Positions 14,563 to 34,085 of a stretch of DNA of 64,000 nucleotides are shown one piece after another. Position numbers and translations under genes: made by a program. Position 1 is the stretch's first letter, and each line of letters opens with the position of its first letter. This DNA is from Alphaproteobacteria bacterium (GTDB taxonomy: Bacteria > Pseudomonadota > Alphaproteobacteria > Rs-D84), in contig WRHR01000001.1 in assembly GCA_009783145.1 (NCBI GenBank), positions 492 to 64,491 on the forward strand, read 5' to 3'. The notes beneath the pieces were generated by a model. That model searched no databases and was not told where the DNA came from. It saw only the letters and a list, made by a program, of their open reading frames with translations.

Positions 14563-14683
14563 CATAAGTCGCTAGTCGAAAGTCGTTAGTCGCTAGTAAT
14601 ACTGCGCAACTCATAATAGTTGTCCTTTATAATGGACAATGCTATCAGTTGCTCATGCTGCTAGCGACTAGCGACGATCGCGC
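14563..14683. repeat. Core-palindrome element (TTGTCCTTTATAATGGACAA) flanked by inverted GCTAGTCG/CGACTAGC tandem arms
   Basis: Seen directly. The core is shared with the elements at 35205, 35768 and 61095. Confidence 0.7.
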
Positions 14684-15140: not shown

Positions 15141-17144
15141 TTAGAACCCAAAGGTTATACCGGCTCTCCAGCTAACGTTGGCCTTGTCGCCTGTGGCGTA
15201 TGACGCGCCGACATTGACCAAGGTTCCGTTGTTGATGTAGTGGAACGCGCCCAGCGCAACGCCGAAGGCGTCACGATAGCCGCCCGTACCGATGGAGATC
15301 TGAGTATCGCCGCTGGAGCGAGCATTCGGCACCAACGCCGACATCGCCGCCAAGCCTGCGAATCCGGAACGAACTTCCTTGCTCAGGTCATCGACGCGGT
15401 TGTCCAGACGATCGATTTCAGCCAGAGTATATTCATACACATAGTTGATGGAGTTCGTCAGGTTCAAAGCGTAGTCTTTCGCGACCATGCCGGACTGGAT
15501 GTCCGCGCGCAGTTGGCGCACATCGCCGGTTTCCAGAACGGTTGCGACATTGTACGCGCCGTCGGTGGTCGGATCCATTACGTTTTCAGCACCGGTCGCC
15601 AAGTAAGACAAGGTCTTGATGGCTTCGTCTTCCGCACCGACCGCGCCCGAGTTGAACACCAGCGAACCAGTGTCTTCGTCGACGATCACAGAGTTCTGAC
15701 CGATGTGGATTTTGCTGGAGCCCGAATCCTTGCCGCCATCGCGACGGATTATGTCATCGATTTTTTCTTCGGTGGCAAGCAAGGCATCCGTCAGGTTGTC
15801 TATGCCGTCAAGGTGAGAGCGATAGTCGCTGCCATCCGCCGCATCCTGAAGTTTGGACACGTCGCCGATAACACTGTCAAGCGCCAGTATGCCTTCGGTC
15901 AGGTTGGTTGCGTCTTGAACGCCCACGTTGTTAGCAGCGGAGAAGTCCAGGTCGCCTTCGGCAGCCATCGCGCGGTTCTTTTCTTTAAGAACTTCCGCGT
16001 CGGTGTAGGTATTCGCCGCAGTCAAGGTGGCCGCGCCAACGCCGTCAGCATAGGTGTTCGCAGCCGTCAGTGTGGCAGCGTCGCCAGCGTCGGCATAGGT
16101 ATACAGCAAAGCCGCGGATGCCGCAACAGCAGCGTCAGCATAAGTGCTGGAATACGTTATGGCTTCAGCTTTCTTTTGGTCGGCATAGGTATACAGCAAC
16201 AGAGCCGAGTCCGCAACCGCAGCATCAGCATAGGTGTTGGCCGCTGTCAGAGTGCTTGCGCCTACTCCGTCAGCATAGGTGTACAATGCAAGCGTTGTGT
16301 CGGTAAGAGCCGTATCCAAAGCATTCAAGGCGCCCGCGACGCTCGTTTGACCATCAATGGCTCCGCCAGCTTGCAGCACGTCTTTGAAATCCTGGGTTGT
16401 GGAATCAAAGCCCAACTGTTCGCCCATGTAAGCTTCTGCTTTATCCCATGCGGCCGTGCCAAGCGCCATAACTTCGCTCTTGGTATAGTAGTCATCGAAC
16501 GCGGCATCCAAAGCGTTGAGCGCTCCGGCTACAGTTGTTTGACCGTCAATGACGCCACCGGCACTCAGCACATCCTTGAAGTCCTGAGTCGTGGAGTCAA
16601 AGCCCATTTGCGAACCCATATATGCTTCCGCTTTGTCCCAGGCAGCTTCGCCTTCTGCGCGCAGCGTGGATGCAAGAGTGGCCAAGTCAGTCGTGCTGGC
16701 TTTGGTGTCCATCGCGGTGTCCAAAGCATTGATAGCTTCGGCCACATTTTGCGCACCGTCAATGGTTCCGCCAGTGTTCAACACATCTTTGAAGTCTTGA
16801 GTTGTTGAATCATAGCCCATCTGCATGCTCAGTTCGGCTTCCGCAGCGTTCCAAGCGGCCAGACCGGCTGCCATTAACGTTGACTCTAACGAAGCCCCAA
16901 AGGCATCAACTTCAGCCTTGGTGTAAGCATCAGTAATGCCATAACCAGCTAAGGTTGTCGCGGCGTCAGCTTTGCCCGCTAACTGCGCGGTCGTAGCAAG
17001 ATCCGATAATTGTACACCACCGAGGTTGGGCATAGCAGATGCAGAACCATCGTCAACCATTATATCGCCCGCAGCCGCGAATGCGCCGGAATTAAATCCG
17101 ATGCCGACCGCAGCCACAAGTGCGATTAGACTTATTTTTTTCAT
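15141..17144 (-). CDS. Trimeric autotransporter adhesin (YadA-like)
   Basis: Signal peptide, stalk-like repeats (TLTAANTYADAAV..LLYTYAD), and a C-terminal YadA-anchor-like segment ...LSKEVRSGFAGLAAMSAL...GASYATGDKANVSWRAGITFGF. Confidence 0.75.
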   Translation of the reverse strand: MKKISLIALVAAVGIGFNSGAFAAAGDIMVDDGSASAMPNLGGVQLSDLATTAQLAGKADAATTLAGYGITDAYTKAEVDAFGASLESTLMAAGLAAWNAAEAELSMQMGYDSTTQDFKDVLNTGGTIDGAQNVAEAINALDTAMDTKASTTDLATLASTLRAEGEAAWDKAEAYMGSQMGFDSTTQDFKDVLSAGGVIDGQTTVAGALNALDAAFDDYYTKSEVMALGTAAWDKAEAYMGEQLGFDSTTQDFKDVLQAGGAIDGQTSVAGALNALDTALTDTTLALYTYADGVGASTLTAANTYADAAVADSALLLYTYADQKKAEAITYSSTYADAAVAASAALLYTYADAGDAATLTAANTYADGVGAATLTAANTYTDAEVLKEKNRAMAAEGDLDFSAANNVGVQDATNLTEGILALDSVIGDVSKLQDAADGSDYRSHLDGIDNLTDALLATEEKIDDIIRRDGGKDSGSSKIHIGQNSVIVDEDTGSLVFNSGAVGAEDEAIKTLSYLATGAENVMDPTTDGAYNVATVLETGDVRQLRADIQSGMVAKDYALNLTNSINYVYEYTLAEIDRLDNRVDDLSKEVRSGFAGLAAMSALVPNARSSGDTQISIGTGGYRDAFGVALGAFHYINNGTLVNVGASYATGDKANVSWRAGITFGF

Positions 17145-17375: not shown

Positions 17376-17620
17376 CTGGATTGCTTCGCCCGTTGGGCTC
17401 GCAATGACAATAAGGAGTGTGTTCAAGGCACACAGCCTAAAACAAACGCCGACTTGTCATTGCGAGGAGCGCGTAAGCGCGACGCGGCAATCCAGTCAAT
17501 AAAAAGGAATCATACACTATTCACTGGATTGCTTCGTCCGTCTTCGCTTCGCTACGCCGCGACTCGCAATGACAATAAGGAGTGGATTGCGGAGCACAGC
17601 GAACAATGACAAGGGAGAGA
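17376..17620. repeat. Cluster of family-A MITE-like elements (TIR CTGGATTGCTTCGC...GCTCGCAATGACAA / TTGTCATTGCGAG...GCAATCCAG). One full copy and further half copies.
   Basis: Seen directly. Full copies also occur at 17941-18095, 29338-29455, 59300-59415 and 60186-60292. Confidence 0.75.
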
Positions 17621-17626
17621 ATAAAT

Positions 17627-17935
17627 ATGAAAGAACATCATTACTATGTCTATATTCTTTTCAACAAACGCAACGGGACTCTTTACACCGGCGTGACGCG
17701 CGACATATTTCGCAGAACTGAAGAGCACAAAAGCAAAAAGCCTTTTGGATTCGCAGAAAAACACGGGGCGGACAAATTAGGCTATATTGAAAGCTATCAA
17801 TATGTTAACGATGCCATCTTCCGTGAAAAACAAATCAAGGCCGGATCGCGAAAAAATAAGCTGAAACTAATCGAATCGATGAATCCCGAATGGAAAGACC
17901 TGTGGTACGAGCTTGGGAATTTTGTTTGGAGTTAG
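17627..17935 (+). CDS. Small GIY-YIG nuclease-family protein (URI-domain type)
   Basis: HYYVYILFNKRNGTLYTGVTRDIFRRTEEH... carries the GIY-YIG signature. It is a paralogue of 36548..36928. Confidence 0.7.
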   Translation: MKEHHYYVYILFNKRNGTLYTGVTRDIFRRTEEHKSKKPFGFAEKHGADKLGYIESYQYVNDAIFREKQIKAGSRKNKLKLIESMNPEWKDLWYELGNFVWS

Positions 17936-18123: not shown

Positions 18124-19005
18124 TTGTTATTTACTTCCTATACTGCGCGCGTGGAACAAAATACCGTGATTTCTTTCGCAAACGTTGCGGCGCGGTACGA
18201 AGGCGGGCGAGAGGTCCTGTCCGACGTATCCTTTAATATCAGCAACGGCGCTTTCTATTTCCTGTCCGGCGCGTCGGGGGCGGGCAAGACCACCCTTTTG
18301 CGCCTTATATATATGCTGCACCCCGCATCACGCGGCCAGATAAAGTTATTCGGAAAGACCACAACCGGAATGTCGCGAGACGACATCACCGCGCTTCGCC
18401 GCAAGATGGCCATCGTGTTCCAAGAGTACTCGCTGGTGTCGCACCTGTCGGTCTTCGACAATATCGCCCTGCCCTTGCGCGTTCGCGGCGCAGATGAAAA
18501 GTATGTGAAGAAACTTGTCGCGAAAACTTTGGAATGGGTGGGACTTGCGCAGTACGCAAACCAGCGCCCGCTGAATCTTTCCGGCGGACAGCAGCAGCGC
18601 GTTTCGGTCGCGCGCGCTATCATTACTCAGCCCGAAATCTTACTCGCGGACGAGCCGACCGGAAACCTGGACGACGATTCGGCCGCGCGACTGATGGAAT
18701 TATTCTTGCAGATGAACAAGAACTTCGGCACTGCCATCATTCTTGCAACGCACAGCCAGCGCCTGATGGACACTTACAAGTTCCCAAAGATTTATGTCGA
18801 AAACCAGCATGTGCGATTCGAGACGCGAGACGCGAAACGCGAAACGCGTGTCGATGATACAGAACCAACTGAAAAAAAATCTAAATCTCAAAATTCTGGC
18901 GCGTCTCGCGTCTCGCGTCTCGCGTCTCGCGATAAAAGTTATTTCGAAGAGCTATCGGGAAAACTTGAATTGGAATTTTCAAAACTGGCGGGAGAAGAAA
19001 AATGA
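18124..19005 (+). CDS. ftsE: Cell-division ABC ATPase FtsE, with a C-terminal extension created by an in-frame repeat-element insertion. A GTG at 18166 is a possible alternative start.
   Basis: Walker A GASGAGKTT, LSGGQQQRV signature and Walker B ILLADEPTGNLD. After ...YVENQHV the frame reads through the heptamer-arm element (ETRDAKRETR...SRVSRLASR). The stop overlaps the ftsX ATG (ATGA). Confidence 0.85.
   Translation: MLFTSYTARVEQNTVISFANVAARYEGGREVLSDVSFNISNGAFYFLSGASGAGKTTLLRLIYMLHPASRGQIKLFGKTTTGMSRDDITALRRKMAIVFQEYSLVSHLSVFDNIALPLRVRGADEKYVKKLVAKTLEWVGLAQYANQRPLNLSGGQQQRVSVARAIITQPEILLADEPTGNLDDDSAARLMELFLQMNKNFGTAIILATHSQRLMDTYKFPKIYVENQHVRFETRDAKRETRVDDTEPTEKKSKSQNSGASRVSRLASRDKSYFEELSGKLELEFSKLAGEEK
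18815..18940. repeat. Heptamer-arm palindromic element (GAGACGC/GAAACGC x4 ... GCGTCTC x4) inside the ftsE reading frame
   Basis: Seen directly. Translated as ETRDAKRETR...ASRVSRLASR. Confidence 0.8.
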
Positions 19006-19838
19006 GGAACAAACGGCCCCTGGTTTTTTCCTTCGTGCGCGAGCAAGCCATATTCTTGACGGCTTTGATAGCATTGCTGACTTTCCTTGCGACGCTTGCG
19101 TTGGGCGTTACCGTCGGAATCGGCGCCGGAGTCGCGCAATGGAACGCGCGGTGGGATACTTTCGCGACGGTTCAGGTCTTGCCGGGCGGAGACTTCGACG
19201 CCGCGCAAAAACTGTCCAGGAACGCAAAGCATGCAAACGTCGTTCCGGACGAGGAAGTTGCGAAAATGCTGCGCCCTTGGCTGGGCAGCAGCGATGCGTT
19301 ATCCGCTTATTTGCCGAAGATGATAGAAGTCGAGTTCGCGAACTCATCCGACTTGCGCAGCTTCGGCGATGCTGCGAAAAACCTGCAGGGCGCGCGCTTC
19401 ATCACGCATGCCGCCGGAGCAAGAAATATTACTCGCGCCGGATGGCAGATTATGGGAATCTCGGTCTTGGTCATGATTATGGTTCTGGGCGCCATAGGCC
19501 TCTGCATTTCATACATCACGCGCAATATAACTCTGATTCACAAGCGCGAGTTGGAAATATTAACTCAAATCGGCGCAAGCGATTCGTTCGTGGCAACCCA
19601 GATGCAAATTATCATCACTAAAATCAGCGCGATGGCGGCCGGCATCGGCCTGATTGTCGCAGTACCGATGATTTTCTTGATAACATCCATGGCTCAAGGG
19701 ACCCGAATCGGGTTGATGGCGCAAATGCATGTGCCAGCGATGGGATGGACCCTGATCGTATTGCTGCCCGTCCTAATAATCGCGCTGACGGCATGGTTGG
19801 CGCGCCGCACAACGATGAAGATTTTGGGCGATAAATAA
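19002..19838 (+). CDS. ftsX: Cell-division permease-like protein FtsX
   Basis: MRNKRPLVFSFVREQAIFLTALIAL..., four TM segments and a periplasmic loop. Translationally coupled to ftsE. Confidence 0.85.
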   Translation: MRNKRPLVFSFVREQAIFLTALIALLTFLATLALGVTVGIGAGVAQWNARWDTFATVQVLPGGDFDAAQKLSRNAKHANVVPDEEVAKMLRPWLGSSDALSAYLPKMIEVEFANSSDLRSFGDAAKNLQGARFITHAAGARNITRAGWQIMGISVLVMIMVLGAIGLCISYITRNITLIHKRELEILTQIGASDSFVATQMQIIITKISAMAAGIGLIVAVPMIFLITSMAQGTRIGLMAQMHVPAMGWTLIVLLPVLIIALTAWLARRTTMKILGDK

Positions 19839-19845
19839 TTTACGA

Positions 19846-19905
19846 TTTACAAATTACGATTTGTTGGGAGTAAAATCGTAAATCGTAAATCGTAAATCGT
19901 AAATC
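19846..19905. repeat. Hairpin built from the tandem heptamer TACGATT / AATCGTA (x4)
   Basis: Seen directly in the intergenic region between ftsX and the DUF218 gene. Confidence 0.7.
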
Positions 19906-19906
19906 A

Positions 19907-21259: not shown

Positions 21260-22633
21260 CTAGGGGAGTTTCGGCGACCAGGTCGGCTCCAGCCCGTTGA
21301 CGCCTTCGGGCAGCTTTATATCATATGTGTTGTGCCCCATTATATCCACGCTGCGGATATGGCTGACGCGCTCGGTATCGCTGTATTTTTCCGTTTCGTA
21401 ATAGACGACGCGGCGACTGCCCGGCGCCCAGCTTGGGGCCTCCATATACCATCCTCCGGCAAGGATTTTCTCGTTCTTTCCCTTCGGCGACATCACTCCG
21501 ATGAAAAAGGTATCGTCCGCTATCTTCGTGAACGCGATATAGTTCCCGTCGGGGCTCCACGCGGGCGTGGCATAGCGCCCGTTGCCGAATGTTATGCGCT
21601 GCTCGGACAAGTCGCCCAGGTCCATCACATGAATCTGCTGGCTGCCCGACCGGTTCGAATTGAACGCCAGCTTTTTCCCGTCCGGGGAATACGAAGGCGA
21701 AGTATTGATATTATCGCCGAACGTCAATTGGCGCAGCTTGCTGTTTTCCAAGTCGTATTCGTAAAGGTTCGTGGCGCCGTTCTTGACAAGGGATATCGCG
21801 ACCTTGCCGCCATCCGGCGAAAAGCGCGGCGCGAATGTCATCCCGCCGAACTGCCCCAGCTTGCGCTGCGCGCCGGTATTCATATCCAGCGTCCAGACCA
21901 TCGGATTATCGTCGCGATAGGATAGGAATACTATGGTCTGCATGTTCGGCGAAAAGTGCGGCGACATAACCATGGTTTTCGCATCCGAGATATAGCGGAA
22001 TCCGAATCCGTCGCTGTCCATTATCGCAAGGCGCTTGGTTCGGTTGCCCATCTCCCCGGTCTCGGTCGTCATGGCTATCTGAGTATCGAAATACCCGACT
22101 TCGCCGGTCAATCTTTCATAAATGCTGTCCGCCATGATATGCGCGAGACGCCGGGCGGATTTCTTAGGCGCGACCAGGACTTGGGCTTCGATCTGTTCTT
22201 TGCCCTGGATATCCCAGACATAGAACTGCAGGCTGTATTTTCCGTCGGCGGTTTCCGTAAGCCGGCTTTGCACCATGACCTGGGTTTTTATCGCTTCCCA
22301 GTCTCGCCAAACCGGCATTTCGTCCATTTTTACGAGTTTAGGATGCGCGGCCTGCTTTACGATATGGAACAAGCCGGTGGATTTCAGGTCGTTTTCCACA
22401 ACTTCGCGCAGGGTCGCGGCCAGTTTCGCGTCTTTGGCCTCGAACTTTTGAATCGCGATCGGTATGGGCGAGACGTTGCCGGCGATAATATCGACCTTTA
22501 ATTCGGCGCGTGCCGCGCCGATAAAGAATAAAGAATAAAGAATAAAGAATCCGAGTTGGCAATTTATTGCCTTTACGAGGATACGCGCAGACGCGAAGCG
22601 TCGAGCGAATAAATTCTTTGCTTTTTTTAACAT
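21260..22633 (-). CDS. tolB: Tol-Pal system beta-propeller protein TolB. The start is trimmed to MLKKAKNLF.
   Basis: N-terminal TolB domain plus repeated WSPDG beta-propeller blades (SPDGGKVA, SPDGKKLAF, AWSPDGNYIAF). The signal peptide contains the tandem heptamer AAAGAAT x4. Confidence 0.9.
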   Translation of the reverse strand: MLKKAKNLFARRFASARILVKAINCQLGFFILYSLFFIGAARAELKVDIIAGNVSPIPIAIQKFEAKDAKLAATLREVVENDLKSTGLFHIVKQAAHPKLVKMDEMPVWRDWEAIKTQVMVQSRLTETADGKYSLQFYVWDIQGKEQIEAQVLVAPKKSARRLAHIMADSIYERLTGEVGYFDTQIAMTTETGEMGNRTKRLAIMDSDGFGFRYISDAKTMVMSPHFSPNMQTIVFLSYRDDNPMVWTLDMNTGAQRKLGQFGGMTFAPRFSPDGGKVAISLVKNGATNLYEYDLENSKLRQLTFGDNINTSPSYSPDGKKLAFNSNRSGSQQIHVMDLGDLSEQRITFGNGRYATPAWSPDGNYIAFTKIADDTFFIGVMSPKGKNEKILAGGWYMEAPSWAPGSRRVVYYETEKYSDTERVSHIRSVDIMGHNTYDIKLPEGVNGLEPTWSPKLP

Positions 22634-22765: not shown

Positions 22766-25700
22766 GTGAAGAGAGAAGGCCGGAAAATCAGCTTGGTCGC
22801 GTTAATTATCGCCGCGTTCGTCGCGCCGGCAATGGGCGCCGATATAAACATAGTTACCTCCAAGCAATACGTCGACGCCAGGTTCAACCCTGCCGACGCC
22901 GCGACCAAGATTGCGGTCGTGACGCTTGACGCCAATAATCGCCCCATCGTAAAGAATGATAAGAGCATTTCAGACATACTCGGCGGCATAACTACAACGA
23001 CCACCGGTGCCGGTAATGCGGTTACAAGCATTTCCGACGACGGCGCGGGCCATATCACTGCGACCAAGGGCTCGACTTTCTTGACCGGCGAAACCGACCC
23101 GTCCATCGATACCACTGTCATGGGCACTGCGGCGACTGCCGCGGGAACGACTGGCACCGCGGGCAAGGTTTATACGGTTCAGAAAAATGCGGCCGGGAAA
23201 GCAGTCGTCAGCGTGCCTTGGATGGATAACAATACGACTTACACCGGCACCGCGCCAATTGATGTAACCGGTACTGTCGTGTCTCATAATACTTCCGGCG
23301 TAACAGCCGCAGCATATGGGCCCAGCGCTCCCGCGACTTTGACATCTGGCGGAACGTTTACCGTTCCCAGCGTGACTGTAGACGCAAGAGGACATGTCAC
23401 TGCTGCTGCTGCGCAAACCATGACTATGCCAAGCATACCTGCGGCTGCAAATAATGCCGCGATTAAAATAGCATATGCGACGACCGGCATAACGGCTGCA
23501 GGGAACTTTGCGACCGTCAATCAAGCGGCCGATAGTACTTTGACCTTGCATACTGTGGCAAGCACCGGAAGCTATAACGATCTGGGCAACAAGCCGTCGA
23601 TACCAGCGGCTCAGGTTAATAGCGATTGGAATGCAGGCAGTGGCGTTGCGCAGATACTGAACAAGCCGACAATACCGACTATAACTATGAACAACGCTGG
23701 GACTACGACGCCGAGCTTTTATGCTCCGACAGCAGGAGGCACTTCGGGTAATGTTCTGAAATCCACCGGGGCGACCAGCGCTCCGACTTGGGGGACATTG
23801 TCTTACTCTGATATTACTGGCACCCTGCCGCAGGTGCAATCTGACTGGGCTCAGGCGACAACGGGTGCGGCTGATTATATTAAGAACAAACCGACGATAC
23901 CAAATACTGCTGGCACTGGCATCAACATAACCGGCGCGACCATAACTAATACCGCGCCGAATTTGCAAACGAAGAATATTGTCGGAGCGGCGACCGGCGC
24001 GACTGCGAATGCGGCCTCTACGAACGGCAATACGTATTTGAATGCTGTTGAGAACGGCGCTGTGGTCAGCACTCACAAAATCGCTGGAGGCGGCGCGACT
24101 ACTGTTACTTCCGACGCTTCCGGAAACATAACCATCAGCAGCACGGATACGCCTCCTACGACATATACCGGCACCGCGCCTATTAATGTGACCGGTACTG
24201 TTGTATCTCATAATACTTCCGGCGTTACGGCGGCAACTTATGGTCCCGGCGCGAATGCGACATTGGCTTCGGGCGGAACATTTACTGTTCCGGAAGTTAC
24301 GCTCAATGCGACAGGACATGCGACCGGCGCCGCGACAAGAACATTTACCTTGCCGACTATATTAACCCATCCGGCCGGCGCGAACGGCACTTTCGGACCG
24401 GCTGCGAACGCGACACTGACTTATGGCGGCACATTCACAGTTCCGCAAGTAACCGTCGATGCGAACGGGCATACGACAACAGGCGCGACAAGAACATTTA
24501 CCATGCCGGCCGCGCCGACCGCTTATACTCACCCCAACGACGGCGGGGCTGGAACGTACGGTCCGGGAGCAGATGCAACATTAGTAAGCGGCGGCACGTT
24601 TACAGTTCCACAAGTAACCGTCAACGCTGCCGGGCACACGACTTCGGGCGCGACCAGAACGTTTACTATGCCCTCGATTCCCGCGGCTGCAAACAATGCA
24701 GCGATTAATATTGCATATGGCGCAACCGCAACAGCTCCGGGACAATTTGCGACTGTTGATCAATCAGCTGCTACAACTCTTACTTTGCATACTGTGGCAA
24801 GAACAGGAAGTTATGATGACCTGACTAACAGGCCGACTATTACGGATACTAAGATCAAGGCGTTCAACGGCAACGTTACTGCAGGCACGGCGGCGGCATA
24901 TACTCTTGCGACCACATATCCTGCGTTCACGGCGGCGGATATGGCTGACGGAACGGTAGTGTTTGCGACTCCGAACCAAACGAACTCCGCCGGCGCGACG
25001 TTATCCGTTGGCGGGCAGACAGCGCGTCCGATTTGGAATTCCGCGACCGGCGCGACTGTGGCGGCAAGCGCTTTGGTTGCGAACATGGCTTACTCGTTCA
25101 CGTATGACGCCACGAATAACAGATGGCATGCAAAGCAGCTGGATACAAACACGGTTTATACTCATCCGACCGGTGGTGCGAACGCTACGCTTGGTCCGGG
25201 GGCGAATGCGACGTTGACATTCGGCGGCACATTTACCGTTCCGCAAGTAACTGTCGATGCGAGCGGGCACACGACTTCTGGCGCGACAAGAACATTCACT
25301 ATGCCTGCGACGCCGACGGCTACGGGCACTGCGGGCGGCGATTTGACCGGAACTTATCCTAACCCGACTTTGACCACGACTGGCGCGGCTGCCGGAACTT
25401 ACGGCATTACGGCGGATGCGTCCGGATCCGGAGCAAGCTTTAAAGTTCCGAAATTCACTGTCGATACCAAGGGTCGTTTGAGCATGGCGGGAGAGAATAC
25501 CGTCACTATGCCGACGACAACGACTTATGCCGGCACCGCGCCAATTACCGTAAGCGGAAGCAGCATAACTCATGACGACTCCGGCGTAACGGCCGCAGCA
25601 TACGGGCCCAGCGCGCCCGCGACCTTGACATCCGGCGGAACGTTTACGATTCCGTCAGTTACCGTTAATGCAAAGGGCCACGTCACGGCGGCAGCAACTC

Positions 25701-28700
25701 AGACCATGACCATGCCTACGATACCGGCGGCGTTCACTCATCCGGCCGGCGCGAACGGCACATTCGGTCCGGCTGCGAATGCGACTTTGACTTATGGCGG
25801 CACATTTACAGTTCCGCAGGTAACAGTTGATGCGAATGGGCATACGACCACCGGCGCGACCAGAACATTCACTATGCCGGCGATTTACACTCATCCCAAT
25901 GACGGCGGAGCTGGAACATACGGTCCGGGCGCGGATGCTACTTTGGCAAGCGGCGGCACATTCACGGTTCCGTATGTAACGGTCAATGCGGCCGGTCATA
26001 CGACCGCCGGCGGAGTCAGAACATTTACCATGCCGACTTTATCGCCGAACTTGCAGACAAAAAATATCGTCGGCGCGACAACGGGGGCAACCGCGAACGC
26101 GGCTTCTACGAACGGCAACACATATTTGAACGCCGTTGAGAACGGCGCAGTGGTAAGCACTCACAAAATCGCGGGCAGCGGCGCGACTACCGTCATATCG
26201 GATGCGTCTGGCAATATAACTATCAACAGTCCCGCCGCCACGACATATACCGGAACTGCGCCGATTACCGTAAGCGGAAGCAGCATCACTCATGACAACT
26301 CCACCGTCACGGCTGGAAATTACGGTCCGGCGGCGAATGCGACGTTGACTTCCGGGGGAACATTTACAGTGCCGTATATCTCCGTCGACGCGAAGGGCCA
26401 TACAATCACAGGCACGGCGACAAGAACGTTTACGATGCCGACTATTACGGATACTAAGATCAAGGCGTTCAACGGGAATGTTACCGCGGGCACGGCGGCG
26501 GCTTACACTCTGGCAACTACATACCCGTCGTTTACGGCGGCAGATATGGCTGACGGAACGGTTGTGTTCGCAACTGTGAACCAGACGAACTCCGCAGGTG
26601 CGACGCTGGCTGTTGGCGGACAGACTGCAAGGCCGATTTTCAATACTGCGACTGGGGCTGCTGTGGCGGCGAGCGCGCTGATAGCGAACACGGCTTACTC
26701 GTTCACGTATGACGCCACGAATAACAGATGGCATGCCAAGCAGCTTGATACGAATACGTTAACGCGGGTTAATCTGAACAACGCGGGATTGAACAGCGGC
26801 GACATTACGGCGTTCTATGCTCCGACCGGGGGCGGCACGTCAGGCAACGTTCTGAAATCCACCGGGGCGACCAGTGCTCCGACTTGGGGGACTTTGAGCA
26901 CCAGCGACATCACCGATATAAATACATATGTTACGACGAACGCGGCCAAATCATTCAACGGGGCAACTACTACCTTGGCGACTAACGCTTACTCGCTCGC
27001 GGCAACGCAGCCGACGTTTGCGGCGGGGAATTTGGTCGCAGGCGCGGTGGTGTTCGCTACATTGAACGCGACGAATCCGTCGGCTGCTCCGACTTTGAAT
27101 GTGAATTCTACCGGCGCGAAGACCATCATGCTGAACGGCGCGGCGACGGGGGCGAGCGCTTTGGTTGCGAATGTCGCCTACTCATTCACTTACGACGGCA
27201 CGAACTGGAGCGCAAAGCAGCTTGATACGAATACGTTAACGCGGGTTAATCTGAACAACGCGGGATTGAACAGCGGAGATATTACGGCGTTCTATGCTCC
27301 GACCGGGGGCGGCACATCTGGCAATGTCTTGAAATCCACCGGAGCAACCAGTGCGCCGACTTGGGGGACGTTGTCTTATTCGGATATAACTGGAACTGCT
27401 CCGGACACCAAGATTAAGGCGTTTAATGGGAACCTTACCGCAGGCACGGCGGCGGCTTACACTCTGGCGACCACATATCCGACGTTTACAGCGGCGGATA
27501 TGGCTGACGGAACGGTTGTGTTCGCTACTGTGAACCAGATGAACTCCGCCAGTGCGACATTGTCTGTTGGCGGACAGACCGCGAGGCCGATTTTCCATAC
27601 TGAGACTGGCGCGGCCGTGAATGCGGGCTCATTGGGGACGTACAGGGCACATTCATTCACTTACGATGGCACGAACAACAGATGGTACGCAAAGCAACTT
27701 GATACGTACGAACATTCCGCATCAGGCAATCCTGGGCAATACGGTCCGACTTCCGGCGGAACATTGGCCTTCGGCGGCACATTTACCGTTCCATATATAG
27801 AGGGAAATGATCAAGGACATGTCATTGATTCTGGGGAAGTTACATTTACTCTGCCGGCGGCGCCGACTGTCACTGAAACCGATCCGCTGTTCAACGCCCT
27901 TGACGGGACAGCTGGGGCGACCACCGGGACTGCCCCGACATACCTTCTTACCACCGCCGCTGCAAAGAAGATAACTCTGACGACCGGCGCGCGCGTCATT
28001 ACGAAGATACATGCCGCCGCAACGGCCGCAGCCACTTTGAATGTAACCTCGAACAGTGTCGCTCTGGGGGCAAAGGCCATCTTTGTGAACGGTGCGGCGG
28101 TCAGCTCTACCAATCCGTTGAAAGCGAACGCGGTTTACGAATTCATATATGACGGGACTCAGTGGCAAGCGATTGGCACGGATACTATTCCGGATTTGAG
28201 CACAGTTGTTCCGACATACGAAACCGATCCGAAGTTCAACTACTTCGACGGCACGATTAGCGGAATGGCGCCGAGCTATACTCTTACCACGTCAAAAGTC
28301 ATACCTTCGCCATTGGCGGCTGGTGCCCGCGTGGTTGCAAAAATCCAAGGAACCGCAACATCTGCCGCAACTTTGACCGTTATTGCGAATGGCGTCAATC
28401 TCACTGCAAAGAACATATTTGTAAACGGCGCTGCAATCAGCTCGACCAATCCGTTGAAAGGCGCTGTTTACGAGTTCATCTATGATGGAACCCAATGGCA
28501 GATTATTGGCGCGATTCAAGATGTTGCAACAAATGAAGCCGACCCGAGGTTCTTCTTCTACGATGGGCAGACCGGCGGAACCGCGCCGAATTATACTCTT
28601 ACAACGACAAAGATCGTGCCCACCATGGTATCGGGCCCAGGCGCGCGCTTGGTCGTGAAATTTCATGCCGGCACGACATCCGCCGCGGCTTTGAACTTAA

Positions 28701-29293
28701 CCAGCGGAGTTAAACTCCTCGGCCAATATCCGATATTTGTGAACGCCGCCGCGGTAAGTCCGTCCAATCCGCTGAATGCCGCAGTTTACGAGCTCATCTT
28801 CGACGGCACTCAATGGCAGGCAATCGGTTCCGGCAGCGGCGGAGGCATATCTGCCGCGACGACGACTAAACTGGGCGGCGGAAAATTATTCTTTAATCCT
28901 TATCCTGGTATAGATCTGGGCGCAACAGAGACCGATTGTCTTGTGGACGAGACAGGGATGAAGGGTGAATGTCGTGCTTATCCGATCCAGCTTAATGACA
29001 CCGACGACAAAATGTATGTTGCAGTTCCGGATGCGTACACAGTAGTTAATAACGAATTTTATAACAACATACTTCCAAGCATTCCTGTCGCCACCATTGA
29101 ATACAGCGCGGGCAACGGAGGTTCGAACGGTATGATTCCAAAGATACCGTATGCCTGCCGCGCGGGACAGAATCCAAAGGTTACCTGCATGCTCGGATAT
29201 GGCGAATTTACCAGCAACGGCGCGAACGGCACGGGCGTTGATGCCGCCGGCGGATCCGGCACCGGATTCTATTGGGAAAAAGTCACACGTTGA
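22766..29293 (+). CDS. Giant repetitive secreted protein (2175 aa, GTG start). It carries more than 15 tandem repeats of about 45 aa (YGPxANATLTxGGTFTVPQVTVDANGHTTxGATRTFTMP) and C-terminal repeats of about 80 aa (...AKxIFVNGAAxSSTNPLKxAVYEFIYDGTQWQ).
   Basis: Single 6.5-kb ORF with a signal peptide and highly periodic Thr/Gly/Ala-rich repeats. Shadow ORFs on both strands are rejected. Confidence 0.7.
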   Translation: MKREGRKISLVALIIAAFVAPAMGADINIVTSKQYVDARFNPADAATKIAVVTLDANNRPIVKNDKSISDILGGITTTTTGAGNAVTSISDDGAGHITATKGSTFLTGETDPSIDTTVMGTAATAAGTTGTAGKVYTVQKNAAGKAVVSVPWMDNNTTYTGTAPIDVTGTVVSHNTSGVTAAAYGPSAPATLTSGGTFTVPSVTVDARGHVTAAAAQTMTMPSIPAAANNAAIKIAYATTGITAAGNFATVNQAADSTLTLHTVASTGSYNDLGNKPSIPAAQVNSDWNAGSGVAQILNKPTIPTITMNNAGTTTPSFYAPTAGGTSGNVLKSTGATSAPTWGTLSYSDITGTLPQVQSDWAQATTGAADYIKNKPTIPNTAGTGINITGATITNTAPNLQTKNIVGAATGATANAASTNGNTYLNAVENGAVVSTHKIAGGGATTVTSDASGNITISSTDTPPTTYTGTAPINVTGTVVSHNTSGVTAATYGPGANATLASGGTFTVPEVTLNATGHATGAATRTFTLPTILTHPAGANGTFGPAANATLTYGGTFTVPQVTVDANGHTTTGATRTFTMPAAPTAYTHPNDGGAGTYGPGADATLVSGGTFTVPQVTVNAAGHTTSGATRTFTMPSIPAAANNAAINIAYGATATAPGQFATVDQSAATTLTLHTVARTGSYDDLTNRPTITDTKIKAFNGNVTAGTAAAYTLATTYPAFTAADMADGTVVFATPNQTNSAGATLSVGGQTARPIWNSATGATVAASALVANMAYSFTYDATNNRWHAKQLDTNTVYTHPTGGANATLGPGANATLTFGGTFTVPQVTVDASGHTTSGATRTFTMPATPTATGTAGGDLTGTYPNPTLTTTGAAAGTYGITADASGSGASFKVPKFTVDTKGRLSMAGENTVTMPTTTTYAGTAPITVSGSSITHDDSGVTAAAYGPSAPATLTSGGTFTIPSVTVNAKGHVTAAATQTMTMPTIPAAFTHPAGANGTFGPAANATLTYGGTFTVPQVTVDANGHTTTGATRTFTMPAIYTHPNDGGAGTYGPGADATLASGGTFTVPYVTVNAAGHTTAGGVRTFTMPTLSPNLQTKNIVGATTGATANAASTNGNTYLNAVENGAVVSTHKIAGSGATTVISDASGNITINSPAATTYTGTAPITVSGSSITHDNSTVTAGNYGPAANATLTSGGTFTVPYISVDAKGHTITGTATRTFTMPTITDTKIKAFNGNVTAGTAAAYTLATTYPSFTAADMADGTVVFATVNQTNSAGATLAVGGQTARPIFNTATGAAVAASALIANTAYSFTYDATNNRWHAKQLDTNTLTRVNLNNAGLNSGDITAFYAPTGGGTSGNVLKSTGATSAPTWGTLSTSDITDINTYVTTNAAKSFNGATTTLATNAYSLAATQPTFAAGNLVAGAVVFATLNATNPSAAPTLNVNSTGAKTIMLNGAATGASALVANVAYSFTYDGTNWSAKQLDTNTLTRVNLNNAGLNSGDITAFYAPTGGGTSGNVLKSTGATSAPTWGTLSYSDITGTAPDTKIKAFNGNLTAGTAAAYTLATTYPTFTAADMADGTVVFATVNQMNSASATLSVGGQTARPIFHTETGAAVNAGSLGTYRAHSFTYDGTNNRWYAKQLDTYEHSASGNPGQYGPTSGGTLAFGGTFTVPYIEGNDQGHVIDSGEVTFTLPAAPTVTETDPLFNALDGTAGATTGTAPTYLLTTAAAKKITLTTGARVITKIHAAATAAATLNVTSNSVALGAKAIFVNGAAVSSTNPLKANAVYEFIYDGTQWQAIGTDTIPDLSTVVPTYETDPKFNYFDGTISGMAPSYTLTTSKVIPSPLAAGARVVAKIQGTATSAATLTVIANGVNLTAKNIFVNGAAISSTNPLKGAVYEFIYDGTQWQIIGAIQDVATNEADPRFFFYDGQTGGTAPNYTLTTTKIVPTMVSGPGARLVVKFHAGTTSAAALNLTSGVKLLGQYPIFVNAAAVSPSNPLNAAVYELIFDGTQWQAIGSGSGGGISAATTTKLGGGKLFFNPYPGIDLGATETDCLVDETGMKGECRAYPIQLNDTDDKMYVAVPDAYTVVNNEFYNNILPSIPVATIEYSAGNGGSNGMIPKIPYACRAGQNPKVTCMLGYGEFTSNGANGTGVDAAGGSGTGFYWEKVTR

Positions 29294-30345: not shown

Positions 30346-32463
30346 TTACTTTATCATCTCAGCAACTAATTCCGACAGCGGGCGGTTTATGAATTCCGGA
30401 TCGCCTTTGATTTCCGGCGCGCCTTTTTTAATCGCGGTATCGCATGGATGATCGTCTTCCAGCCAGTTGCTCAGCAGGTCCCCTGCCAGAAATCCTATGC
30501 CCGCGCCTGCGACCAAGGACAGCCCTCCGGTAAAAGGCGCAAGCAATATCATTCCGATGCCGGTCGTGGCGGCGGTGCGCTCTATAAGGCTGCGGCCGTT
30601 GAACTTGATATCGGGCTCGGCCATGTTTCCGGTGAACTCCATAGAATTCACTATATTGCCGGTAAAGCTGATTTTCAACCCCCGCACCGGCGTCGATACC
30701 ATCGACGCGTCCAAAGTTTCTTTTCCCAAATCCGCCCTGCCCGCCGCGCGCATATTCACGGCAGAGGTTTGCAAGGCGATTCCGCGCTCGGTCTCGACAA
30801 CTCCGCGACGGATTTTCAAGTTTACGACGGCGCATGAAACATCGACTTTGTCATACTTGTTCTTGGCGGTCACCATATCTTGCACGCTATGGCGCAGAGA
30901 TGTCAGAAAGTCCTGGCCGTACAAGTATTCCGCCGCGTCCGGCAGTGCGGTTCCGGCCCCAACGCTGCGCACTTGGAGGGGGCCGGCGACGCTTGCCATC
31001 AATTCGGACAAGTCCTTTCCGCGTCCTTGCAGATAAAACTCGAAGTCCGCCGGAAGGCCTGTTATGATATTTTTTTCGCCCACGCTTTCCAGTATCTTTC
31101 CCGCCTGAATGCCTTGCCCCATCCCCGCTCCGCGCGCGACAACCGCGCCTTCGTCGTCATAGGCGAGCAAAGCGGCGCGAACTTTTCCGCCCGCGAATCC
31201 GGCGTCCATACGAACGGAAAGCTCGCCGTCCTTAACATTCGCGCGCGCGCTTATATTCTCAACCGACAAGTTGCGATACATGACCAAGCTTGCGAGATCG
31301 ACCGCAATATCCGCGTTCGCAAGGTTCAGGTATTCGGAATAAAGCGGCGTATCCTTGAACACGTTCAGCGGCCGGTTCGGGCGCTTCCAAGGCGTCTTCG
31401 CGGTGCCGTACAGCTCTGTGAAAACTTCGCCCAATATGAATTTTTTAGATCTCAGCTTCGCGGATATCATGGGCTTCTTGCCGCCCCAACTGATATTGCC
31501 CGAAACCGACAAGTCGCTTTTTCCGAACGATATCGAAGACTGATGCAGCGTTAGCTTGCTGTGCCCCATACCGCCGGAAATGTTCAACGTCATCGGAGCA
31601 ATCTTCGGAACATCCGGATCAAAGCGTTTTAAAATCGCCTGGGCGTCCGCAATCTTTCCTTTGACTATAAAATCTATGGGCAGCTTTGACGTCTGCTCCA
31701 GCGCCAAGTTCGCGATAACCGGCGTCAGCTTGTTCGCGATCGCGACGCGCACGGGATAAACCTTGCGCGCCGCGTCCAAAGGCAGCAATGACGCGATGAA
31801 CGAATATTCCTGCCCGTCGTCCAGCGCGACACGCCCGACGTATTCTATATATCCGTCGGTCTTCTTATACCGCAGAAAGATTTCTTCCGCCTCGAACTCC
31901 GTCTTTCCGCCCGCGTCGATGAATACGAACTTCGGGTTTTCCATTTTGACGGAATCGATGCCCCAATCCGAATCAAAGGGAAATTTTGCCGGGCCGTCTT
32001 CTTGATTAGTCGTATTTGTCATTCCCGCGAAGGCGGGAACGCGCGAAGACTCCAAGGAATATTCGCCCTCGGCGTTTTCCTCCAGATATACCAGCGGGTT
32101 TACAAGTGTCAAATCGCTGACGGACGCCGTCGTACCCAAAAGCGAAAGAAGATTTATTCTCGCCTCGACCTGATCTATGCGGACGCCGTCTTCATTGGCG
32201 GCCCAATCCTTTGCCGGAATCGCTACGTCGGACAAGACGACGCGAGGCGTCAGCGAGAACTTCCAATGAATCTCGCCGCGGATTTCGACGGGCAGCCCGG
32301 TGGCGCTTGATAGAGCATGCGCGACCTCGCCGCGAAGGGTTTCAAGATTCACCCGCGACAGAGCGACAAACAGCGAAACGACCAGCCCGACAAGAACTAT
32401 CGCGAAGATGCGCGCAAAGCGAAAGAAGTCGCGCTTAAAAAATCGCATCAGTACAAATTTCAT
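30346..32463 (-). CDS. asmA: AsmA-family outer-membrane assembly protein
   Basis: N-terminal TM anchor, then the AsmA-like N-domain (SRVNLETLRGEVAHALSSATGLPVEIRGEIHWKFSLTPRVVLSDV) and a long beta-rich body. A family-B hairpin sits in frame at 32018-32044 (RVPAFAGMTN). Confidence 0.55.
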   Translation of the reverse strand: MKFVLMRFFKRDFFRFARIFAIVLVGLVVSLFVALSRVNLETLRGEVAHALSSATGLPVEIRGEIHWKFSLTPRVVLSDVAIPAKDWAANEDGVRIDQVEARINLLSLLGTTASVSDLTLVNPLVYLEENAEGEYSLESSRVPAFAGMTNTTNQEDGPAKFPFDSDWGIDSVKMENPKFVFIDAGGKTEFEAEEIFLRYKKTDGYIEYVGRVALDDGQEYSFIASLLPLDAARKVYPVRVAIANKLTPVIANLALEQTSKLPIDFIVKGKIADAQAILKRFDPDVPKIAPMTLNISGGMGHSKLTLHQSSISFGKSDLSVSGNISWGGKKPMISAKLRSKKFILGEVFTELYGTAKTPWKRPNRPLNVFKDTPLYSEYLNLANADIAVDLASLVMYRNLSVENISARANVKDGELSVRMDAGFAGGKVRAALLAYDDEGAVVARGAGMGQGIQAGKILESVGEKNIITGLPADFEFYLQGRGKDLSELMASVAGPLQVRSVGAGTALPDAAEYLYGQDFLTSLRHSVQDMVTAKNKYDKVDVSCAVVNLKIRRGVVETERGIALQTSAVNMRAAGRADLGKETLDASMVSTPVRGLKISFTGNIVNSMEFTGNMAEPDIKFNGRSLIERTAATTGIGMILLAPFTGGLSLVAGAGIGFLAGDLLSNWLEDDHPCDTAIKKGAPEIKGDPEFINRPLSELVAEMIK

Positions 32464-32465
32464 TT

Positions 32466-33464
32466 TTATTCTGTCTTAAACTCCAAAAACTTCGCGACGT
32501 TCGCCATAAAGTTCGGCATCTGCGCGCGAATTGTCACTATCTTTTTCGTTACCGGATGCCTCAGCGACAGCTTGTGCGCGAACAGGAACAATTTGTTGGA
32601 ATCCAGCATGGAATCCAAGATTGTGTTATCTGTGCTCTGTGCTCTGTGCTCTGTGCTCTGGCGATACAAAGTATCGCCGACTATCGGGGCGCCCAGCGCG
32701 AATGCCGAATGCAGGCGCAACTGGTGCGTGCGTCCGGTCTGCGGCGCAAACCGCACCCAGGTCAGGACTCCGGGCAGTCGTCCCAAGACCTCGTACTTCG
32801 TAATCGCGCGCTGCGGGCGAGTGCCACTCAAGCGCTGAAATTCATCCGCCTCATCCGACGACAGGACTTTTCCTTTCGCCATAAAGGTATCCAAAACGCC
32901 GCGGCCGACCGGAATGCTTCCGCGCAGCAGCGCCAGGTATTCTTTTGCCGCGGACTTGTCCCTGAACTGGGCCGCCAGGTGCTGAGCGGCGCGCTGATTC
33001 TTGGCGAAGACTATCACTCCGCTTGTCTCGCGATCCAGGCGGTGCACGGGAAGAATCGTGTCATAAGGGAACAATGCCGCCGCCATTTTATCAAGCGATT
33101 TTTTTATCCCGGTTCCGCCCTGCACCGCCAGACCCGCTGGCTTGTCGAACGCGACGAAGTCCGGATCGTCATGGATTATCAGCTTGCGTAATTTTTCCAG
33201 GTCGGCCAGAGAAAATTTAATTCCGGATTCCTGGCTTTTCGCTTGAGGGGACTGCTGCAGCGCGGCAAGAAAAGGCGGAATGCGCAAGTCGTCGCCCGAA
33301 TGCAGAATTTCATCGCCATGGCACCTCGCGGAGTTCACGCGCATCTGGCCTGATCGGCACAGCTTGTGAAATTCTCCGTCAGAAACTCGCGGATAGTGCC
33401 TCTTGACCCATCTTTTCAGACGGATTCCGTCTTCAGTGGAAGAGATTACAGTTTGTGTGCGCAT
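32466..33464 (-). CDS. RluA-family 23S rRNA pseudouridine synthase (RluC/RluD-like) with an S4 domain
   Basis: HRLDRETSGVIVFAKN catalytic motif and an S4-like N-terminus. The tandem heptamer GTGCTCT x4 in the 3' region is translated as HRAQSTEHRAQST. Confidence 0.85.
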   Translation of the reverse strand: MRTQTVISSTEDGIRLKRWVKRHYPRVSDGEFHKLCRSGQMRVNSARCHGDEILHSGDDLRIPPFLAALQQSPQAKSQESGIKFSLADLEKLRKLIIHDDPDFVAFDKPAGLAVQGGTGIKKSLDKMAAALFPYDTILPVHRLDRETSGVIVFAKNQRAAQHLAAQFRDKSAAKEYLALLRGSIPVGRGVLDTFMAKGKVLSSDEADEFQRLSGTRPQRAITKYEVLGRLPGVLTWVRFAPQTGRTHQLRLHSAFALGAPIVGDTLYRQSTEHRAQSTDNTILDSMLDSNKLFLFAHKLSLRHPVTKKIVTIRAQMPNFMANVAKFLEFKTE

Positions 33465-33554: not shown

Positions 33555-34085
33555 TTATTCCCCATATACTATATGAACCGCGTTCTGCCCTGCGGGCCCC
33601 TTGCAATCGTTCGGGATGGCGGTCGCGCCGCCGGACCGGCCGTTGGACGCCTGGTACCCGACAGAATCAGACCAAGCCTTTACTCTGAAGTACTCGCAGT
33701 CGGACGGGTTAAGGCCGTCTATGGTCAGAATGAACTGGCGCAAGTCCGACGGATTCACGGACAGCAAGTATTTTCCGCCGTACGGATTCTTGTCCGACAT
33801 GCCGATGGCGGCGAATATGGTACCGTTGTCCAGATTTGAAAAGTCGTCGTATTCGCCCAGGATGGTGCGAACGCCGGTGACTATCTGCGCAACTTCGTCC
33901 TGCAGCGCGGTGCGCTTTTGGCTGCGCATGGCGGCGGTAATCATAGTAATAGCGCCGACGGTTATAACGCCCATTATGGCCAGAACGCCCAGCATTTCAA
34001 TCATGCTTCTGCCAGATTCGCTGTCAGAAGTCGAAACGCGAAACGCGAAACGCGAAACGCGTAGTGAATCATATAATTTTCTCAT
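33555..34085 (-). CDS. Type IV prepilin/pseudopilin with a long leader of about 27 aa (type IVb-like)
   Basis: ...SESG|RSMIEMLGVLAIMGVITVGAI has the class III signal, with Gly at -1, Glu at +5 and a hydrophobic helix. The leader residues RVSRFAFRVS come from the heptamer arms of the element at 34020-34150. Confidence 0.65.
   Translation of the reverse strand: MRKLYDSLRVSRFAFRVSTSDSESGRSMIEMLGVLAIMGVITVGAITMITAAMRSQKRTALQDEVAQIVTGVRTILGEYDDFSNLDNGTIFAAIGMSDKNPYGGKYLLSVNPSDLRQFILTIDGLNPSDCEYFRVKAWSDSVGYQASNGRSGGATAIPNDCKGPAGQNAVHIVYGE

Follow-up and report, generated by a model that had tools for sequence, protein, structure and literature searches.

The question raised by this locus is how a cell division gene can carry a repeat hairpin within its reading frame and still be read through to its proper end. 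The gene is ftsE, and it lies in a 64,000-nt stretch from an alphaproteobacterium of the GTDB lineage Rs-D84 (GenBank assembly GCA_009783145.1, contig WRHR01000001.1, positions 492 to 64,491 of the forward strand), the whole of which was analysed and is referred to here as the window. An initial, sequence-only reading had pictured a repeat insertion fused to the 3' end of ftsE, lengthening FtsE by ~70 aa and followed by 24 added codons that preserved the overlap with ftsX. Our results suggest a different history. With a probability of roughly 0.6, the ftsE element is one copy of a family of dispersed heptamer arrays resembling the 7-bp STRR repeats, a family that would arise by slippage and templated copying and would be filtered by selection.

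The ftsE open reading frame (ORF) encodes 293 aa and matched TIGR02673 as the top hit of 186 families (254.5 bits, residues 15-226), slightly below that model's equivalog cut-off of 264.85. The columns of the Walker A, signature, Walker B, and H-loop motifs are invariant in our alignment (A1). The tail of the ORF reads ...KIYVENQHVRF-ETRDAKRETR-VDDTEPTEKKSKSQNSG-ASRVSRLASR-DKSYFEELSGKLELEFSKLAGEEK, followed by the stop codon; ETRDAKRETR, encoded by the left arm (codons 18820-18849), comes immediately past the last strand of the nucleotide-binding domain (..HVRF), and the C-terminal part starts DKS YFEEL... The two arms (18819-18848 and 18900-18929(31)) constitute a 30-nt inverted repeat that is 93% complementary across a 51-nt gap, and TRF assigned them a period of 7 with 4.3 and 4.6 copies. 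When the 21-mer (GCGTCTC)3 was searched with up to 3 mismatches, 18 matches were found in the window compared with 0 in 100 shuffles. Folding predictions for the element gave -58 kcal/mol as sense RNA (z -5.2), -69.9 kcal/mol as antisense RNA (z -7.5), and -37 kcal/mol as DNA (z -4.9); in the antisense RNA, the A/C mismatches become G-U pairs and the 30-bp stem is unbroken. As originally described, the frame stays open through the hairpin, and the TGA of ftsE (19003-19005) overlaps the ATG of ftsX at 19002 (ATGA, 19002-19005). The order ftsE-ftsX is conserved in relatives, where an overlap or close abutment of stop and start also occurs. Since the DNA of an independent JGI contig (L083) is identical over 361 aligned bases of the ftsE region, and since the identical FtsE protein is encoded in two more assemblies, an NCBI metagenome-assembled genome (MAG) and ENA contigs (P0001, P0121, P0122), the hairpin is not an assembly artefact. 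The source MAG holds NCBI protein MCL1891686.1, and the organism is also present in metagenomes such as JGI 3300002505.

What the element contributes to the protein turned out to be far less than ~70 aa. FtsE is indeed ~67 aa longer than the TIGR02673 model, which stops at residue 226 of 293, but only ~20 aa of these come from the repeat arms. The nearest FtsE homologues belong to uncultured Alphaproteobacteria that carry the names 'Rickettsiales bacterium' or Candidatus Enterousia, and termite-gut metagenomes supplied the closest of them. Among the genome_contigs representatives, the best match reached 78%, so that the source species is not one of these. Tails were recovered from 78 of the 86 related loci fetched at that stage, and the related proteins are 245-319 aa long throughout. 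In all 78, a variable linker of low complexity comes after the last ATPase strand (..HV.F) and leads into a conserved motif, of the form NYFxELSNKLExQFSKLAG or (K)(I/V)WKGPKPQNYFxELSKQFDDIGNA. Past the YKFP motif, the tail is typically 46-57 aa in relatives compared with 72 aa in the window, an excess of ~20 aa that equals the two 10-aa arm translations; the window tail is therefore longer than those of its relatives, as expected, although by much less than had been supposed. Since the motif is present in all of the recovered tails, the 24 codons beyond the element are the ancestral C-terminus of FtsE and not an addition. In an AlphaFold2 model of moderate overall quality (59-sequence alignment, mean pLDDT 66, pTM 0.57), the ATPase domain was folded and residues 228-261, which correspond to the element, had pLDDT <50 and no secondary structure, whereas the conserved motif was modelled as a helix at residues 262-280 (pLDDT 62-72). 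The long FtsE tail, with its conserved C-terminal helix, is thus a feature of the clade and does not derive from the repeat. In this clade of gut alphaproteobacteria, the C-terminal extension consists of a variable linker and the helix NYFxELS(x4)QF..I/L, lies outside TIGR02673, and might contact FtsX or another divisome partner.

The 51-nt loop also proved not to belong to a one-piece insertion. The loop DNA of the window, ACAGAACCA..AAAAAATCT..CAAAAT, aligns with ACTGAACCAAAAAAATCTGAAAAT of the related locus L002, so that the loop codons ACA GAA CCA (ACT GAA) AAA AAA TCT (AAA TCT) CAA AAT resemble ACT GAA CCA AAA AAA TCT GAA AAT of the relative. Linkers of relatives end in TEPKKSEN (L002) or ..PKKSEN-YF (L003, L084, L085), again matching the loop. 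Because its 17 middle codons match the native linker of relatives, the arms of the ftsE hairpin bracket host DNA. Arrays are absent from ftsE in L084 (P0124; listed at 83% identity, in a cluster built at 90%) and in L002 (P0004; 77%). In L001 (79%), a different heptamer, (GTCGGCA)x4.6, begins at exactly the same codon, after ..HHVKF, and a near-complementary partner array, (GACTGAC)n, lies 106 nt downstream, past the conserved helix; there too, the arms bracket native coding DNA, the frame is open, and the stop codon overlaps the ftsX ATG. L085 (~1880-1930) and L012, which represent two other lineages, have an unrelated ~45-nt G/C-rich palindrome, TCCCCCCTCTTGGGAGGGAGTGCCCCCAAAGGGGGCGAGGGGGGG, in frame in the FtsE linker, where it is read as SPLLGGSAPKGGEGG. 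Since the heptamers of L001, the palindrome of L085 and L012, and the arms in the window all occur there, the FtsE linker is evidently permissive and has taken up repeats on several occasions.

Nor is the hairpin an isolated oddity of a divisome gene: the 64 kb hold about twelve sister hairpins, and several of these lie within other genes (Table 1). The window holds 20 period-7 arrays compared with 0.07 in shuffles, most of them paired as hairpins; for other periods the numbers were 2 (period 8), 1 (period 6), and 0 (period 9). There are 9 complementary heptamer pairs, with folding energies of -24 to -60 kcal/mol on the + strand, in addition to 1 hairpin with hexamer arms. At least 7 families of heptamer units are represented: CGAAACG/CGTCTCG at 5 loci, AGTCGCT and CAGAGCA at 2 each, and further ATTTACG, GTAGGAA, AATTAGC, and ATAAAGA. 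With a laxer threshold, which gave 21 arrays, and a coding fraction taken from an approximate, hand-built gene map, 8/21 arrays lie in coding sequences though ~84% of the window is coding, and 13/21 are intergenic though only ~16% is non-coding. All 8 arrays within coding sequences fall in loops, linkers, or signal or leader peptides. Heptamer arrays are therefore depleted from genes, yet not excluded from them.

Table 1. Positions of ftsE, of the parts of its hairpin, and of the other heptamer and hexamer arrays in the window (numbered from its first nucleotide; arrays are named by their unit).
Feature	Position	Strand	Remarks
Hairpin AGTCGCT	14567..14678	.	Intergenic; loop holds palindrome TTGTCCTTTATAATGGACAA
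ftsE coding sequence	18151..19005	+	GTG start at 18151, alternative TTG at 18124; ABC ATPase domain intact, plus clade-specific tail
Hairpin CGAGACG	18819..18931	+	In ftsE
Left arm of ftsE hairpin	18819..18848	+	CGAGACG CGAGACG CGAAACG CGAAACG CG, i.e., (CGAGACG)2(CGAAACG)2
'Loop' between arms	18850..18900	+	17 codons, VDDTEPTEKKSKSQNSG; remnant of native FtsE linker (DNA and protein alignment to relatives)
Right arm of ftsE hairpin	18900..18931	+	(CGCGTCT)x4.6; codons 18901-18930 read ASRVSRLASR
Ancestral C-terminal motif and stop	18931..19005	+	DKSYFEELSGKLELEFSKLAGEEK; conserved in 78 tails
ftsX	19002..19838	+	Weak TIGR00439 match; Pfam FtsX gene at same position in relatives
Hairpin (ATTTACG)n/(CGTAAAT)n	19835..19905	+	Fills ftsX-DUF218 spacer; ends 1 nt before ATG
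Solo array (TCTTTAT)x4, coding strand	22521..22550	-	tolB signal peptide
Solo array (CAGAGCA)x4.6, coding strand	32624..32660	-	RluA-type pseudouridine synthase
Hairpin GTAGGAA	33469..33551	.	Intergenic; 27-bp stem
Hairpin CGAAACG	34028..34142	.	Around start of minus-strand pilin-like gene
Hairpin CGAAACG family	35161..35283	+	In uvrC
Hairpin, hexamer arms	35737-35833		
Two adjacent non-complementary arrays	51050..51140	.	(TGCTCTG)n, coding strand, in secretin gene; (ACTAGCG)n (51113) in spacer
Hairpin CGAAACG family	52425..52517	.	Intergenic; mirrored variant units GAAATGC/GCATTTC and GTGACGC/GCGTCAC
Hairpin CGAAACG family	56830..56934	.	Between sufC and probable start of next gene (sufD by position alone)
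Hairpin AATTAGC	61053..61187	.	Between convergent outer membrane protein gene and dnaJ; loop holds 20-nt palindrome

The loops of the CGAAACG-type copies are mutually unrelated. On the + strand, the left arm in this family mostly has A where the complement of the right arm has G, completely so in 2/5 copies (uvrC and 56830) and partially in 3/5. Because of this asymmetry, the antisense RNA folds 12-20 kcal/mol better than the mRNA strand in 5/5 copies, irrespective of gene direction. In the hairpins at 52425 and 61053, identical variant units occur in both arms, not always at mirrored positions. Three further observations concern the hairpins as a group. All 5 of the CGAAACG-type hairpins (18819-18931, 34028-34142, 35161-35283, 52425-52517, and 56830-56934) share one orientation on the + strand. 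The stop codon of dnaJ (TAG, - strand, 61182-61187) is supplied by the first unit of (AATTAGC)n, the array abutting the last sense codon. A perfect 20-nt palindrome, TTGTCCATTATAATGGACAA or TTGTCC(A/T)TTATAA(T/A)GGACAA, occurs in hairpin loops at 14620-14639, 35213-35232, 35773-35792, and 61103-61122; the arms around it differ in each of the four hairpins (three are built from heptamer units and one from a hexamer), and it was absent from 82 related loci fetched at that stage. This palindrome may be a small element in its own right, aimed at the loops of hairpins, or a site where a protein binds.

Arrays within other genes show how such repeats are tolerated. In uvrC (34183..35706, +), the hairpin is a clean, in-frame insertion of 123 nt or 41 codons at 35161-35283, translated as ETRNAKRETR-DSENMNNTVHYNGQCTSLYDL-RVSRLASRVS and directly preceding the LIIVDGG motif of the RNase H-like endonuclease domain (Pfam domains). 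The uvrC orthologues in L003 and L005 are without it, exactly (..EKHD joined to LIIVDGG), and an alignment of UvrC to PDB 3c65 fell into two segments at the insertion, with ~45 query and ~13 chain residues unaligned. The hydrophobic core of the TolB signal peptide, FFILYSLFFI, is encoded by (TCTTTAT)x4. In the lipoprotein signal peptide of the secretin, (TGCTCTG)4.6 (51050-51081, -) encodes the hydrophobic region, SVLCALCSVLW; this array takes the place of the corresponding region of orthologues, and the length hardly changes. In the RluA-type synthase, (CAGAGCA)n overwrites native surface-loop sequence with a net gain of 3 aa. At 34028-34142, a type IV pilin-like gene (33555..34085/34124, -) has its Shine-Dalgarno sequence, its ATG, and its first 8 codons enclosed by the arms, and one arm is translated in the leader as RVSRFAFRVS; the leader is 25 aa long (MRKLYDSLRVSRFAFRVSTSDSESG, followed by RSMIEML) compared with 9 aa (MKFINQESG) in L003 and L005. 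Such arrays create spurious N-terminal extensions and odd low-complexity segments in protein predictions from MAGs.

Since three heptamer units span 21 nt and all phases are read, the 7-residue repeat encoded by a tandem heptamer is the same whichever frame is used, and each unit is therefore either compatible with an ORF or not. Units that make stop codons (AGTCGCT, AATTAGC, the GTAGGAA arm, and the CGTAAAT arm) were found between genes only, and ATAAAGA was found within a gene only in its stop-free orientation. CGAAACG/CGTCTCG, which is stop-free on both strands, is the sole unit with whole hairpins in ORFs. This distribution, which can be read from the unit sequences themselves, is what marks a filter of selection on insertions that occur indiscriminately.

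In related genomes, 71 period-7 arrays were found in 1.3 Mb, with a patchy distribution that was dense in some genomes and absent from many. At the ftsX-DUF218 junction, which in the window holds the (ATTTACG)n hairpin, L085 has a hairpin built from (TTGCTGA)n, L012 has (ATTTAAG/ATTTACG)n as a solo direct array, and L002 and L084 have no array. In Enterousia-like genomes, (TTTGAAC)n or (TGCTCTC)n occupies one and the same position upstream of ftsE, past a shared small hairpin. Since these orthologous sites carry different units, the sites of arrays persist while their units drift or get replaced, with the partner arm variably present. A metagenome scan with (GCGTCTC)3 served as a control that pairing is not automatic, and it says little about the lineage of the window. 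At least 120 contigs were matched, mostly with solo arrays in high-GC organisms, and an inverted partner was present in ~5/120 contigs among the matches listed compared with 5/5 loci in the window. Because these metagenome arrays are mostly solo, arm pairing is a property of particular lineages and not of the array itself. The paired cases in L099 and L101 are intergenic, and their neighbouring genes differ from those in the window; no metagenome contig among the matches listed matched the DNA of the window. As for their general occurrence, (GCGTCTC)n arrays of at least 3 units are widespread as solo repeats in unrelated, mostly high-GC environmental contigs (L087-L206), and a few contigs of ~50% GC (L099, L101, L131, L137) carry long (GCGTCTC) hairpins in which periodicity decays outward over ~80 nt.

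On the reading that we prefer, arrays would grow and homogenise via replication slippage, and arrays or their mirror images would be written at near or distant sites by template switching or gene conversion, whether from arm to arm or from locus to locus. Purifying selection would then remove gene-breaking copies and spare those in permissive regions of proteins, so that a stop-free CGAAACG/CGTCTCG hairpin could survive whole in an ORF if it landed in such a region. In ftsE, the arms flank the C-terminal half of the variable, disordered linker between the ATPase domain and the conserved helix, adding two hydrophilic decapeptides; helix, frame, and ftsE/ftsX overlap are left intact because, we propose, other outcomes would be lethal. 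The family would be a selfish or neutral repeat. Its anatomy and existence, the native loop in ftsE, the empty sites in relatives, the tolerance in frame, and the distribution of stop-making units are observed, and we infer both its slippage and template-switch origin and its neutrality for FtsE. Several points weigh against this account. The CGAAACG family occurs at five distant loci with no shared loop, and slippage with local switching would be insufficient alone to place it there. The uvrC copy, arms and loop together, is a one-piece, clean insertion and is transposition-like. Since arm-to-arm templating should erase the A/G asymmetry, its presence suggests that these are copies of a common, asymmetric master element. 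The gathering of hairpins at gene boundaries could reflect function rather than mere tolerance. Finally, the census covers 64 kb of the source genome. It is improbable, though worth stating, that an undescribed process at the DNA level writes complementary heptamer pairs around pre-existing segments (linkers, a helix, a start region), spreading the unit without the sequence that it encloses. If so, such 'bracketing' repeats would be a new class of mobile or enzyme-written element, with possible consequences for RNA structure or phase variation.

The hairpin might instead act in the mRNA, by affecting the stability of the ftsEX transcript, its processing by RNase III/E, ribosome pausing, or the FtsE:FtsX ratio, with the peptide being a by-product. 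The sense-strand fold is consistent with such a role, as is the position of sister hairpins at cistron junctions (ftsX-DUF218, after sufC, upstream of efp, and at the start of the pilin-like gene). The junctions of relatives hold hairpins with different units, structure being kept and sequence not, and similar roles have been proposed for STRR hairpins (PMC2670836). However, the ftsE hairpin is missing in the closest relatives, and in L001 the right arm lies elsewhere. The better fold belongs to the antisense strand in each of the CGAAACG-type copies, whichever way the gene runs, and no such rationale applies to the solo arrays or to those in signal peptides. The ftsE hairpin has no terminator-like U-tract, and a terminator and promoter scan found no terminator there. 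Rfam 15 at gathering score gave 0 matches in the whole window; with permissive settings, 18700-19950 and 37800-38900 yielded nothing real, the only matches being sub-threshold ones to miRNA precursors at the ftsX-DUF218 hairpin. A scan for tRNA and tmRNA found none. Taken together, we regard a regulatory hairpin as an unlikely explanation for the ftsE element.

Slightly less likely again is a miniature mobile element of the MITE, RPE, or REPIN kind, inserted in one piece, with the heptamer arrays as its terminal inverted repeats and a transposase supplied in trans. The exact 123-nt insertion in uvrC relative to its orthologues fits this explanation, and so do the CGAAACG arms at 5 loci in one orientation with a mostly shared A/G asymmetry and the palindrome TTGTCCATTATAATGGACAA in four loops. 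There is also a precedent for palindromic elements in frame in the RPEs, the palindromic elements of Rickettsia (PMC10969869, PMC1779305). Yet the loop in ftsE is native linker, native sequence is likewise bracketed in the pilin-like gene and in L001, the same arms occur with unrelated loops, and the same loop palindrome occurs with different arms. No target-site duplication or common insertion target was seen by eye at the ftsE, uvrC, pilin-like, 52425, or 56830 copies. A search of the ~50 ORFs of the window with Pfam found no cognate transposase, only a phage-type integrase, two small GIY-YIG proteins, and a reverse transcriptase. Genes for a Y1/HUH transposase or a RAYT were likewise lacking in the 64-kb window, and the arm units hold CGTC only within the repeat.

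Since the unit length is not a multiple of 3, the gain or loss of one 7-nt unit would shift the frame and could switch or alter a gene, as at a contingency (phase-variation) locus. Arrays in the pilin-like leader and in the secretin and TolB signal peptides are in typical surface-structure genes. Nevertheless, on/off switching is hardly to be expected of ftsE and uvrC, arrays of ~4 units are short, and the ftsE array is identical in one assembly compared by DNA while the protein is identical in two more, all of which makes this explanation very unlikely. Intragenic invertons are known in gut bacteria, and the arms could conceivably be recombination sites that flip the 51-nt loop to give an alternative FtsE linker. 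By eye, the reverse complement of the ftsE loop is indeed stop-free in frame (ARILRFRFFFSWFCIID). However, a stop-free reverse frame of 17 codons is expected in ~44% of cases by chance, the inverted uvrC loop yields a stop codon, arms so varied in sequence speak against a site-specific recombinase, and a single orientation was present in all assemblies; an inverton is therefore even less probable. Lastly, although repeats and palindromes misassemble easily, the agreement of independent assemblies, the similar arrays in many independent MAGs, and an intact ORF with all ATPase motifs and the conserved C-terminal helix leave almost no room for an assembly or sequencing artefact or for a decaying ftsE pseudogene.

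Other features of the window deserve mention. A second palindromic family (GTCATTGCGAG..) forms inverted pairs at 17397-17573, 17946-18066, 29366-29435, 59319-59389, and 60213-60261; three of its copies flank a small stand-alone GIY-YIG nuclease gene (17582..17935) just upstream of ftsE, and a second small GIY-YIG gene lies at 36548..36970. A third repeat family (..TTCGCCGGAATGAC..) occurs at 32018-32031, 38423-38436, 7633-7646, and elsewhere. One copy, in an AsmA-like gene (30346..32463, -), is translated in frame as VPAFAGMTN, a peptide that is also found at the N-terminus of the predicted FtsE of a relative (P0022). The reverse transcriptase (338 aa, 38806..39822, +) matched Pfam RVT_1, and its best PADLOC matches were to a generic RT model, UG17, and UG4. 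Upstream of it are a G+C-rich, apparently structured non-coding stretch (38000-38460) with no Rfam match and a 99-aa ORF (38511..38810). The window also contains dnaN (41643..42761, +) and dnaA (44064..45356, -), with 45357-45563 adjacent, and because both genes are present a replication origin may be near. GC skew shows no clear switch point despite these genes, and no inference was drawn about a replication-strand cause of the A/G asymmetry of the arms. A giant ORF (22766..29293, +; 2175 aa), for which Pfam gave no match, includes a 477-nt tandem repeat in 2.6 copies at 26446-27706. There are also a YadA-anchor adhesin (15141..17144) and a 1137-aa ORF (14..3427) without a match.

Several known systems share features with these repeats. 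Like MITEs, REPs, and REPINs, they are short, non-coding, hairpin-forming dispersed repeats, and REPINs insert without target-site duplication (PMC3116915, PMC3733652). However, the copies in the window have neither a conserved full-length sequence nor a target-site duplication, no cognate transposase was seen in the 64 kb, and the ftsE, pilin-like, and L001 copies enclose native DNA. The RPEs are palindromic repeats found in frame within conserved protein genes (PMC10969869, PMC1779305), and the likeness extends to their size (~100-150 nt), to their presence in functional, conserved genes at sites that the protein tolerates, and to their hosts, which are repeat-rich alphaproteobacteria. However, copies of an RPE share a full-length consensus and insert in one piece, whereas copies in the window share the heptamer arms alone, their loops being unrelated or native and their arms being tandemly periodic with many alternative units.

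Template switching creates and maintains hairpins (PMC8794818), and a process of this kind, or quasi-palindrome correction, would explain both how near-perfect arms arise in one step around existing sequence and how they stay matched. It has been described for unique stems (rRNA and miRNA-like loci) and is not known for tandem-repeat arms that recur with one unit at several loci. Among the long simple repeats of prokaryotes, heptamers occur most often, and an origin by slippage has been proposed for them (PMC4679880). The TAACTGA arrays of Beggiatoaceae, cyanobacteria, and Bacteroidetes comprise 2-6 units and in many cases stop just upstream of a start codon; a few are found within ORFs, in the stop-free orientation, and 1 of 170 sets is inverted (PMC4679880). 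Heptamer repeats near start codons in Nostoc are suspected of regulatory effects (10.1101/2022.06.06.494920). The arrays of the window resemble the TAACTGA repeats in that a heptamer is favoured, arrays are short and often stop shortly before a start codon, and some lie in ORFs without a stop. Unlike those repeats, which are almost always direct and have one dominant unit, heptamers in the window pair into hairpins as a rule.

The properties of the window arrays point most directly to the STRRs, the short tandemly repeated repetitive sequences of heterocystous and filamentous cyanobacteria. As in STRRs, tandem 7-nt units are present in at least ~3 copies, several unit families coexist in one genome, each spread over several loci, and inverted pairs form stem-loops, mostly at gene boundaries. 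STRR units differ between related strains at the same site. STRRs reportedly lie inside the gene for RNase P RNA (Vioque, in 1997, cited in PMC2858038), and SDRs are said to be nested in heptamer repeats (Elhai, in 2008). STRR hairpins occur between cistrons, e.g., hupS-hupL, and have no known function (PMC2670836). A full-text search of the literature on Enterousia or Rs-D84 together with repeats turned up no such repeats. Hairpins of tandem heptamers, known earlier mostly from filamentous cyanobacteria, abound in this little-known clade of gut alphaproteobacteria, and since many MAGs at graded distances are available for this clade, the origin of STRRs should be testable by comparative genomics. 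The bracketing arms, the different units at orthologous sites, and the one-piece insertion in uvrC all bear on how STRR-type repeats originate and spread, and one genome here combines copies written around native DNA with a copy inserted whole. Unlike the STRRs, the repeats described here belong not to a cyanobacterium but to an uncultured gut alphaproteobacterium of a termite-gut-type clade related to Candidatus Enterousia, and they include whole, in-frame hairpins in essential genes (ftsE and uvrC), arrays that form the cores of signal peptides, and arms that bracket native coding DNA.

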